The notes under the pieces were generated by a model. The model ran no database searches, was not told the origin of the DNA, and was given only the letters and a program-made list of their open reading frames with translations. From NCBI RefSeq assembly GCF_045037415.1, contig NZ_CP173438.1: a stretch of DNA of 64,000 nucleotides. The stretch is one strand, 5' to 3'. A program made the position numbers and the translations under genes. The DNA is from Escherichia coli (GTDB lineage Bacteria; Pseudomonadota; Gammaproteobacteria; Enterobacterales; Enterobacteriaceae). This document shows positions 924 through 57,526 of this stretch, one piece after another (within the stretch, counting starts at the first letter, position 1; each line of letters opens with the position of its first letter).

Positions 924-1472
924 TCACCACTCCCAGACTTTCGACGGTGTAACCACCGCAGGCAGTGGGATATCCCACTCTTCAACGGGGAGTTTTTCCA
1001 CCAACTGACAATCATGCGCATAACCCACCGGTTGCATTTTATAGTGCTGCCAGTTTTGTAAGGTCCGATCATAAAAACCACCGCCCATTCCCAGGCGCTG
1101 ACCGTACTCATCAAAGGCGACCAGCGGTGTAATCAACACGTCTAATCGGGAAAGGGGTAGCACGTCACGCACATCCAGTTTTGGCTCATGGATCTTCAAC
1201 TTGTTCATCACCAGTTCGCTTTGTGGATGGTAATTCAGGAACAGCAAATTACCGGCACTAAAGGGATGCAAAACTGGAAGATATACGCGCTTACCGGCGC
1301 GCCAGAGTTGTTCTATGAGTGGCTGGGTGTCGAGTTCGCCATCAAAAGAGAGGAATACAGCGACCGTATGTGCCATCACCACCGGGGGATAAGTCATCAT
1401 CCGGGTAGCGGCTTGTTGACCCATTTCCTGCTGTTGTTCCGGCGTTAACGCACGACGACGTTGCCGAATCAT
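924..1472 (-). CDS. ygfA: 5-formyltetrahydrofolate cyclo-ligase
   Basis: ORF track 924..1670; the internal start MIRQRRRALTPEQQ gives 182 aa, the known YgfA length. The longer track ORF is an artefact of read-through across ssrS. Confidence 0.9.
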   Translation of the reverse strand: MIRQRRRALTPEQQQEMGQQAATRMMTYPPVVMAHTVAVFLSFDGELDTQPLIEQLWRAGKRVYLPVLHPFSAGNLLFLNYHPQSELVMNKLKIHEPKLDVRDVLPLSRLDVLITPLVAFDEYGQRLGMGGGFYDRTLQNWQHYKMQPVGYAHDCQLVEKLPVEEWDIPLPAVVTPSKVWEW

Positions 1473-1547
1473 TTTGCGGATTTCTTGTCGGGATAATGTC
1501 AGTGGGAGTTCTGGTAATTGCGTCATGGCTGGTGCCAGATAAGAAGG

Positions 1548-1730
1548 GAATCTCCGAGATGCCGCCGCAGGCTGTAACCCTTGAACCCTTGGTTCAAGGT
1601 GAATGTGTCGTCGCAGTTTTAAGGCTTCTCGGACGGACCGAGCATGCTCACCAACCGCGGAGCGCCACATTCTTGTGGTATGAAATATCGGCTCAGGGGA
1701 CTGGCCCGCTTGCGAACATCTCAGAGAAAT
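1548..1730 (-). ncRNA. ssrS: 6S RNA, regulator of sigma-70 RNA polymerase
   Basis: Minus-strand sequence begins AUUUCUCUGAGAUGUUCGCAAGCGGGCCAGUCCCCUGAGCC and ends ...GGCAUCUCGGAGAUUCCC, the E. coli 6S RNA; about 183 nt, immediately upstream of ygfA. Confidence 0.92.
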
Positions 1731-1771
1731 TTTGTCTTCACGGTTACTCTACCACAGTAAACCGAAAAGTG

Positions 1772-2167
<396 letters not shown>

Positions 2168-57452: not shown

Positions 57453-57526
57453 GCGGGCGTAGTTCAATGGTAGAACGAGAGCTTCCCAAGCTCTATACGA
57501 GGGTTCGATTCCCTTCGCCCGCTCCA
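57453..57526 (+). tRNA. glyU: tRNA-Gly (anticodon CCC)
   Basis: 74-nt sequence gcgggcgtagttcaatggtagaacgagagcttcccaagctctatacgagggttcgattcccttcgcccgctcca; cloverleaf with CCC anticodon in the cttCCCaag loop; 3' CCA encoded. Confidence 0.95.

Follow-up and report, generated by a model that had tools for sequence, protein, structure and literature searches.

The most closely related system described so far is the ssrS-ygfA (fau) unit of Escherichia coli K-12, which was reportedly characterized as a dual-function transcription unit by Hsu et al. in 1985 and by Chae et al. in 2011, the latter of whom are said to have found that primary transcripts of 6S RNA terminate approximately 90 nt downstream. 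More generally, the known transcripts that carry a stable RNA ahead of a coding sequence resemble the ssrS-fau pair analysed here in having one transcript and a conserved linkage, but differ from it in that the spacer of this pair is only 20 nt long (64-125 nt in Klebsiella, Raoultella and Yersinia) and has no Shine-Dalgarno sequence. Co-transcription of 6S RNA with ygfA, and conservation of the arrangement in enterobacteria and gamma-proteobacteria, have been documented (PMC2848244, PMC4064990), and PMC3299989, citing Chae et al. (2011), refers to Rho-dependent termination within ygfA.

The window, that is, the whole stretch of E. coli DNA that was analysed (64,000 nt), contains this locus near its beginning, and all positions below are window positions unless otherwise stated. 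The 1.6 kb from 700 to 2300 is 100 % identical to the chromosome of E. coli strain SA186, and of 5426 complete E. coli genomes 5425 contain it with an identity of at least 95 %. The features of the locus are as follows.

Up to 535, minus strand: end of serA.
748-898, in the minus-strand gene order after fau: sibC/ibsC toxin-antitoxin locus.
924-1526, minus strand: fau (ygfA), 5-formyltetrahydrofolate cyclo-ligase, 200 aa, the most likely coding sequence, placed by PGAP, profiles, conservation and ribosome profiling.
1467-1546, minus strand: C-rich, G-poor stretch (C 31 %, G 14 %), rut-site-like, from the sliding C/G ratio.
1470-1472, minus strand: internal ATG, Met19 of the 200-aa form and start of the 182-aa form in K-12 MG1655 and UniProt, from the K-12 annotation.
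1527-1546, minus strand: pyrimidine-rich spacer of 20 nt, sequence CTTCTTATCTGGCACCAGCC, separating the 3' end of 6S from the start of fau.
1527-1670, minus strand: spurious 48-codon N-terminal extension, overlapping the 3' 124 nt of 6S.
1547-1730, minus strand: ssrS (6S RNA, 184 nt), Rfam RF00013, annotated at the same coordinates in SA186.
1746-1775, minus strand: promoter-like site upstream of 6S (ATGACA, 18 nt, TG-n-TAGAGT), from a consensus scan.
1772-2101, minus strand: zapA.

The gene order zapA, ssrS, fau, sibC/ibsC, serA is shared with K-12, as are the promoter-like site and the absence of an intrinsic terminator between ssrS and fau. Across 341 nt covering 6S, its flanks and the 5' part of fau, a single difference from K-12 was found, a synonymous TTA/CTA change in codon 4 of the 200-aa form. 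No biological difference from the K-12 unit was seen; the sole difference is where the start of fau is drawn (182 aa versus 200 aa). The locus can thus be identified with good confidence as the known ssrS-fau (ygfA) transcription unit of E. coli, its coding sequence most likely running from the ATG at 1526 to 924, and the dicistronic ssrS-ygfA arrangement proposed in an earlier note on this DNA matches the published unit. Descriptions of the operon, of its conserved linkage and of Rho-dependent termination inside ygfA were already published between 1985 and 2011, and nothing new is claimed for the biology.

The earlier note had placed 6S RNA on the fau strand and had named an Rfam scan as the search that could overturn this. 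The scan placed 6S RNA here, with an untruncated match to the whole model (positions 1-187 of 187): cmscan matched RF00013 at 1547-1730 on the minus strand with 139.8 bits, three times the gathering score of 46.4, and E = 2.2e-28. No difference from the RF00013 family was found in the window 6S RNA, which has 100 % identity with ssrS of K-12 MG1655 and only two non-canonical pairs in the cmscan alignment. It folds as a long rod with paired 5' and 3' ends and is far more stable than shuffled sequence, with a minimum free energy of -80.5 kcal/mol (z = -5.6) that none of 200 shuffles equalled. From the complete identity with K-12, the window 6S RNA would be expected to bind the sigma-70 RNA polymerase holoenzyme and to template pRNA synthesis.

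The promoter-like site upstream of 6S has nine of 12 consensus matches together with a TG extended -10 element, and 16 nt separate the end of its -10 hexamer from the 5' end of mature 6S. The consensus scan returned two sites where 1.6 were expected by chance, which taken alone is weak evidence. Transcription from ssrS P1 presumably starts about 9 nt upstream of mature 6S, with which the position of the hexamer agrees, and the site is probably, as judged from its sequence, this proximal promoter. On the other side of the RNA, 6S and ygfA had been described in the earlier note as directly fused, which is a misnomer, since two distinct genes lie on one transcript and are separated by the short pyrimidine-rich spacer.

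The fau open reading frame ends at 924 on the minus strand and matches the families PF01812, TIGR02727 and NF007661, all of which denote 5-formyltetrahydrofolate cyclo-ligase. Its N-terminus is given in three versions in the public databases, corresponding to 248 aa (GenBank), 200 aa (PGAP) and 182 aa (K-12, EcoCyc, UniProt), and the exact window forms occur on 555 contigs (248 aa), at least 1000 contigs (200 aa) and 40 contigs (182 aa); K-12's own 182-aa sequence occurs on 571. In K-12 MG1655, ssrS ends at 3056165 and fau starts at 3056241, which leaves a gap of 75 nt and a product of 182 aa, whereas the PGAP annotations of SA186, the strain with the identical sequence, and of K-12 DH1 give fau 603 nt and 200 aa and a start 20 nt after ssrS. 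The comparison with the annotated ygfA start, which had been proposed as a check, therefore gives 75 nt or 20 nt according to the annotation consulted, and because the annotations disagree, the earlier claims of a 75-nt distance and a 66-codon over-call depend on which start is accepted. Both figures are exact for the K-12 MG1655 annotation and its 182-aa form, but the evidence favours the ATG at 1526, for which they become 20 nt and 48 codons. No ATG, GTG or TTG is present in frame between the ATG at 1670, inside 6S, and the ATG at 1526. The latter is very probably the true start of fau, giving 200 aa, a 20-nt spacer after 6S and an over-call of 48 codons. The discrepancy itself is not new, as PGAP and a profiling study from 2016 already give the 200-aa form.

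The longest version corresponds to a mechanically predicted ORF at 924-1670 on the minus strand, 248 aa, whose first ATG lies within 6S and which exceeds the 182-aa form by 66 codons. If it were real, the 3' two-thirds of the 6S gene would be translated. The frame is open and begins with ATG, and the product is not only carried by the 555 contigs mentioned above but also deposited in GenBank (the window sequence, for example, as ANK03217.1), and a near-identical 248-aa variant with two residues different, P0001, represents a 90 % cluster of 2588 members. However, the extension of 48 residues had no family match in Pfam, and what this region encodes is an abundant non-coding RNA, highly structured and conserved as RNA. 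The in-frame ATG, located 124 nt ahead of the 3' end of 6S, was found in Escherichia sequences only, other genera having different accidental in-frame starts inside 6S, among which a TTG at -51 is common. Furthermore, the spacer length modulo 3 is evenly spread across species (23/25/21), so that fau can stand in any phase relative to 6S and no reading phase is conserved in common, and ribosome profiling puts the start downstream of 6S. The ORF exists only because the 3' two-thirds of the Escherichia 6S gene happen to contain no stop codon in this frame. It is a mechanical over-call and not a gene, as the earlier note had recognized in calling the long ORF spurious, and genuine translation of the 248 aa is extremely improbable. 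As the cluster representative, P0001 is itself an over-call and misleads anyone who trusts representatives at face value. ORFs on the plus strand, at 1496-1822 and 1188-1448, which are antisense to 6S and fau, were also considered and were rejected as chance ORFs, having no family match.

The choice between the two shorter forms was considered first at the protein level. The 200-aa form of window Fau has full domain coverage and strong scores within the MTHFS family, as represented by the three profiles and by the solved chains 2jcb, 1ydm, 1sou and 3hxt: 163.4 bits with PF01812 (cut-off 27), 179.9 with TIGR02727 (84.9) and 445.9 with NF007661 (343). Profile position 1 of both PF01812 and TIGR02727 aligns at residue 13, the domain being complete (positions 1-186), and the match to NF007661 (198 positions) covers residues 4-200. 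A predicted ATP-dependent activity converting 5-formyl-THF to 5,10-methenyl-THF is assigned to the enzyme by the equivalog-level NCBIfam model. If the K-12 annotation is right, fau starts at the ATG at 1472, the spacer is 75 nt and the codons upstream are an untranslated leader. This 182-aa start is the curated one in MG1655 and UniProt, the form is widely deposited, including as 5FCL_ECOLI, and it scores far above every family cut-off; its match to PF01812 and TIGR02727, however, begins only at profile position 8 and lacks Arg13 and Arg17. The family profiles (Pfam, TIGRFAM, NCBIfam) and the solved homologues all begin approximately six residues upstream of the K-12 start.

The solved chains 2jcb (Bacillus anthracis), 1ydm (B. 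subtilis), 1sou (Aquifex aeolicus) and 3hxt (human) are aligned from residues 12-14 of the 200-aa form. A lysine is opposite Arg13 in three of the four (1ydm, 1sou and 3hxt), the B. anthracis alignment beginning at residue 14, and an arginine is opposite Arg17 in all four. Residues 10-14 of human MTHFS are annotated as ATP-binding, and the two basic residues near the N-terminus may contact ATP. Compared with the B. subtilis and A. aeolicus chains, which lack them, the enterobacterial Fau has about 10-12 poorly conserved residues (MTQLPELPLTLS) before the conserved helix. An AlphaFold2 model built with an alignment of 10 sequences had its first helix at residues 13-26 but was too poor (mean pLDDT 49.5, pTM 0.55) to support an argument from the N-terminal helix. 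The supplements of TRAINSPOTTER, of the Salmonella riboproteogenomics study and of the ribosome-signature study did not mention ygfA/fau and gave no N-terminal peptide evidence for it.

The conservation of the two candidate starts was then compared. A scan of species-representative genomes gave 80 Enterobacterales loci, and the comparison set consisted of 78 of these and the window (n = 79). In 79 of the 80 loci, the gene directly upstream of fau is that of 6S RNA, in the same orientation. Equivalents of Arg13 and Arg17 are invariant in all 79 sequences. Each sequence also has an in-frame ATG ahead of the Arg13 equivalent, at a distance of 10 codons in 70 sequences and of 7, 12 or 16 codons in the others. 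The conserved fau ATG lies 15-28 nt past the 6S 3' end in 70/79 sequences. The codon of Met19 is ATG in only 10 of the 79, among them Escherichia, Salmonella arizonae, Pseudocitrobacter and C. amalonaticus, in all of which both ATGs are present. Elsewhere the position is occupied by Leu, Thr, Gln, His, Ile, Phe, Val, Asp or Glu (CTG, TTA, CTC, ACC, CAG, CAC, GAA and other codons), and most of these relatives carry a codon unable to start translation, which speaks against the K-12 start.

Codon entropy was calculated for 70 sequences that could be aligned without gaps. At codon positions 1, 2 and 3 it was 0.56, 0.22 and 1.39 for the codons of residues 13-18, compared with 0.63, 0.59 and 1.55 for the downstream fau coding sequence, and codon 2 (Thr) gave 0.29, 0.11 and 1.80. 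Judged from the aligned sequences, the third-position wobble in the disputed codons is a protein-coding constraint and not an RNA-level element. The supposed leader of the 182-aa form would thus have protein-coding wobble as well as two invariant arginines, and it is improbable that the K-12 annotation is right; the 182-aa start is probably an under-call by 18 codons.

The sole locus of the 80 without 6S upstream (L055, Superficieibacter electus BP-1) has another protein gene instead. Its fau still begins MTLIQPSDTPLSRQQIR and has Gln as the Met19 equivalent. At about 1300-1430 of that locus an unrelated ORF ends in an ATGA overlapping the fau start, and a purine-rich GGAAGAGAT is found just before the ATG. 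This fau may be a second copy or a rearrangement.

Ribosome profiling of K-12 with tetracycline-inhibited ribosomes has given a new ygfA ATG at -54 (Nakahigashi et al. 2016, PMC4909307), listed in Table S2 at U00096.2 position 3054209 with a 200-aa product and the class "1. new site". The signals in the three samples were 150.5, 4.7 and 0.6 at -54 and 0, 1.75 and 0.33 at the annotated start (PMC4909307). The ygfA signal is weak and very uneven across the samples, yet it is higher upstream in all three, and fau is weakly expressed. The small signal at the ATG at 1472 in two of the three samples fits the K-12 start, but the stronger signal at -54 in all three does not.

The same data bear on a further possibility, namely that both starts are used in Escherichia and in the few relatives with both ATGs, yielding 200-aa and 182-aa forms. 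Such dual initiation would agree with the presence of both ATGs in 10 of the 79 sequences and with the non-zero profiling signal at both sites in two samples of three. However, since Met19 is not conserved, the short form cannot be common to the family as a whole, and it would be without the invariant Arg13 and Arg17; moreover, the profiling authors classed ygfA as a new site and not as having signal at both sites. Dual initiation is thus considered unlikely, although somewhat less so than use of the K-12 start as the only one, and the 200-aa form from the ATG at 1526 is the preferred reading.

The spacer between 6S and fau is pyrimidine-rich throughout the group, with a mean pyrimidine content of 76 % in the 69 fetched loci with a short spacer. 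Anti-Shine-Dalgarno pairing energies revealed no Shine-Dalgarno sequence before either candidate ATG. The duplex energy at the window fau was -1.5 kcal/mol and the median across 78 species +0.3 kcal/mol, compared with a median of -6.1 kcal/mol for 39 neighbouring genes. Shine-Dalgarno strength was dropped as a start criterion, both ATGs being essentially without one. A terminator scan of 700-2400 found no intrinsic terminator between 1472 and 1547, the stretch between 6S and the K-12 start of fau.

Longer spacers, of 59-125 nt instead of 15-28 nt, were observed in eight loci (L029, L035, L047 and L061 of Klebsiella/Raoultella, L076 and L078 of Yersinia, and L036 and L054). The inserts of Klebsiella and Raoultella have the motif TGTATTACACTAYGCCT in common, and a simple scan of the 102-nt spacer of one Klebsiella locus (L029) found neither promoter nor terminator.

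The C/G ratio reaches its maximum of 2.27 in the 80 nt that follow 6S (1467-1546), compared with about 1.0-1.4 elsewhere, and this C-rich stretch covers the spacer and the first 20 codons of fau. By its composition it is a candidate Rho loading (rut) site, and the window sequence is compatible with Rho termination inside ygfA. The unit is most likely expressed as follows. 6S is transcribed from upstream promoters, in and just after zapA, and mature 6S is cut and trimmed from a longer primary transcript. Rho terminates most primary transcripts in the 5' part of fau, which is rich in C and poor in G, and those that read through serve as fau mRNA. Weak initiation 20 nt after 6S, without a Shine-Dalgarno sequence, would help to set the ratio of 6S to fau output, since the C-rich tract overlaps the weak translation start and ribosome loading and Rho would therefore compete. 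This competition would hold fau mRNA far below the level of 6S.

On this basis, we tentatively suggest that the placement of the start 15-28 nt after 6S is itself functional, in that initiating ribosomes would cover the Rho site and suppress termination of the 6S transcript, inefficient and condition-dependent initiation then setting the amount of fau mRNA made per 6S. This remains a speculative proposal; if true, folate salvage would be coupled to translational status via fau initiation. With the K-12 start, most of the C-rich tract lies upstream of the ribosome-binding site, which would have hidden the overlap between initiation and Rho action. The region of 6S 3' processing and Rho termination must also be read differently with the corrected start, since most of that region is then coding.

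For annotation, neither should the 248-aa ORF be called nor should the start be reverted to that of the 182-aa K-12 form, as the latter leaves the gene under-called by 18 codons and loses two invariant arginines. Likewise, anyone expressing or modelling "E. coli Fau" from the K-12 record omits 18 residues, including these arginines, which did not vary in any of the Enterobacterales sequences compared and are matched by basic residues in the solved homologues, the human one included.

Some further observations were made elsewhere in the window. A tRNA-Gly with anticodon CCC (anticodon loop CUUCCCAA in the Rfam alignment) is located at 57453-57523 on the plus strand, approximately 320 nt from yqeG and adjoining actS, in a neighbourhood spanning about 55.6-58.4 kb. 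In K-12, the degenerate ETT2 type III secretion island (yqeH...ygeQ) presumably lies between yqeG and tRNA-Gly; if this order holds, the present strain appears to be without the ETT2 island at this site. The start of ygfB on the plus strand is ambiguous, the mechanical ORF starting at 2263 (194 aa) and the PGAP gene at 2269 (579 nt, 192 aa), the latter without Shine-Dalgarno pairing (+0.1 kcal/mol). Directly downstream of fau, a full-length SIB_RNA match (RF00113, 133.7 bits) at 748-898 on the minus strand corresponds to the sibC antitoxin RNA, which is antisense to the ibsC toxin gene of 19 codons at 764-823 on the plus strand. The PGAP record of SA186 has ibsC annotated and sibC RNA absent, whereas K-12 annotates both. 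Some E. coli genomes (matches H17-H23, with about 390 extra bases) have a second Ibs-family copy at the sibC/ibsC site.
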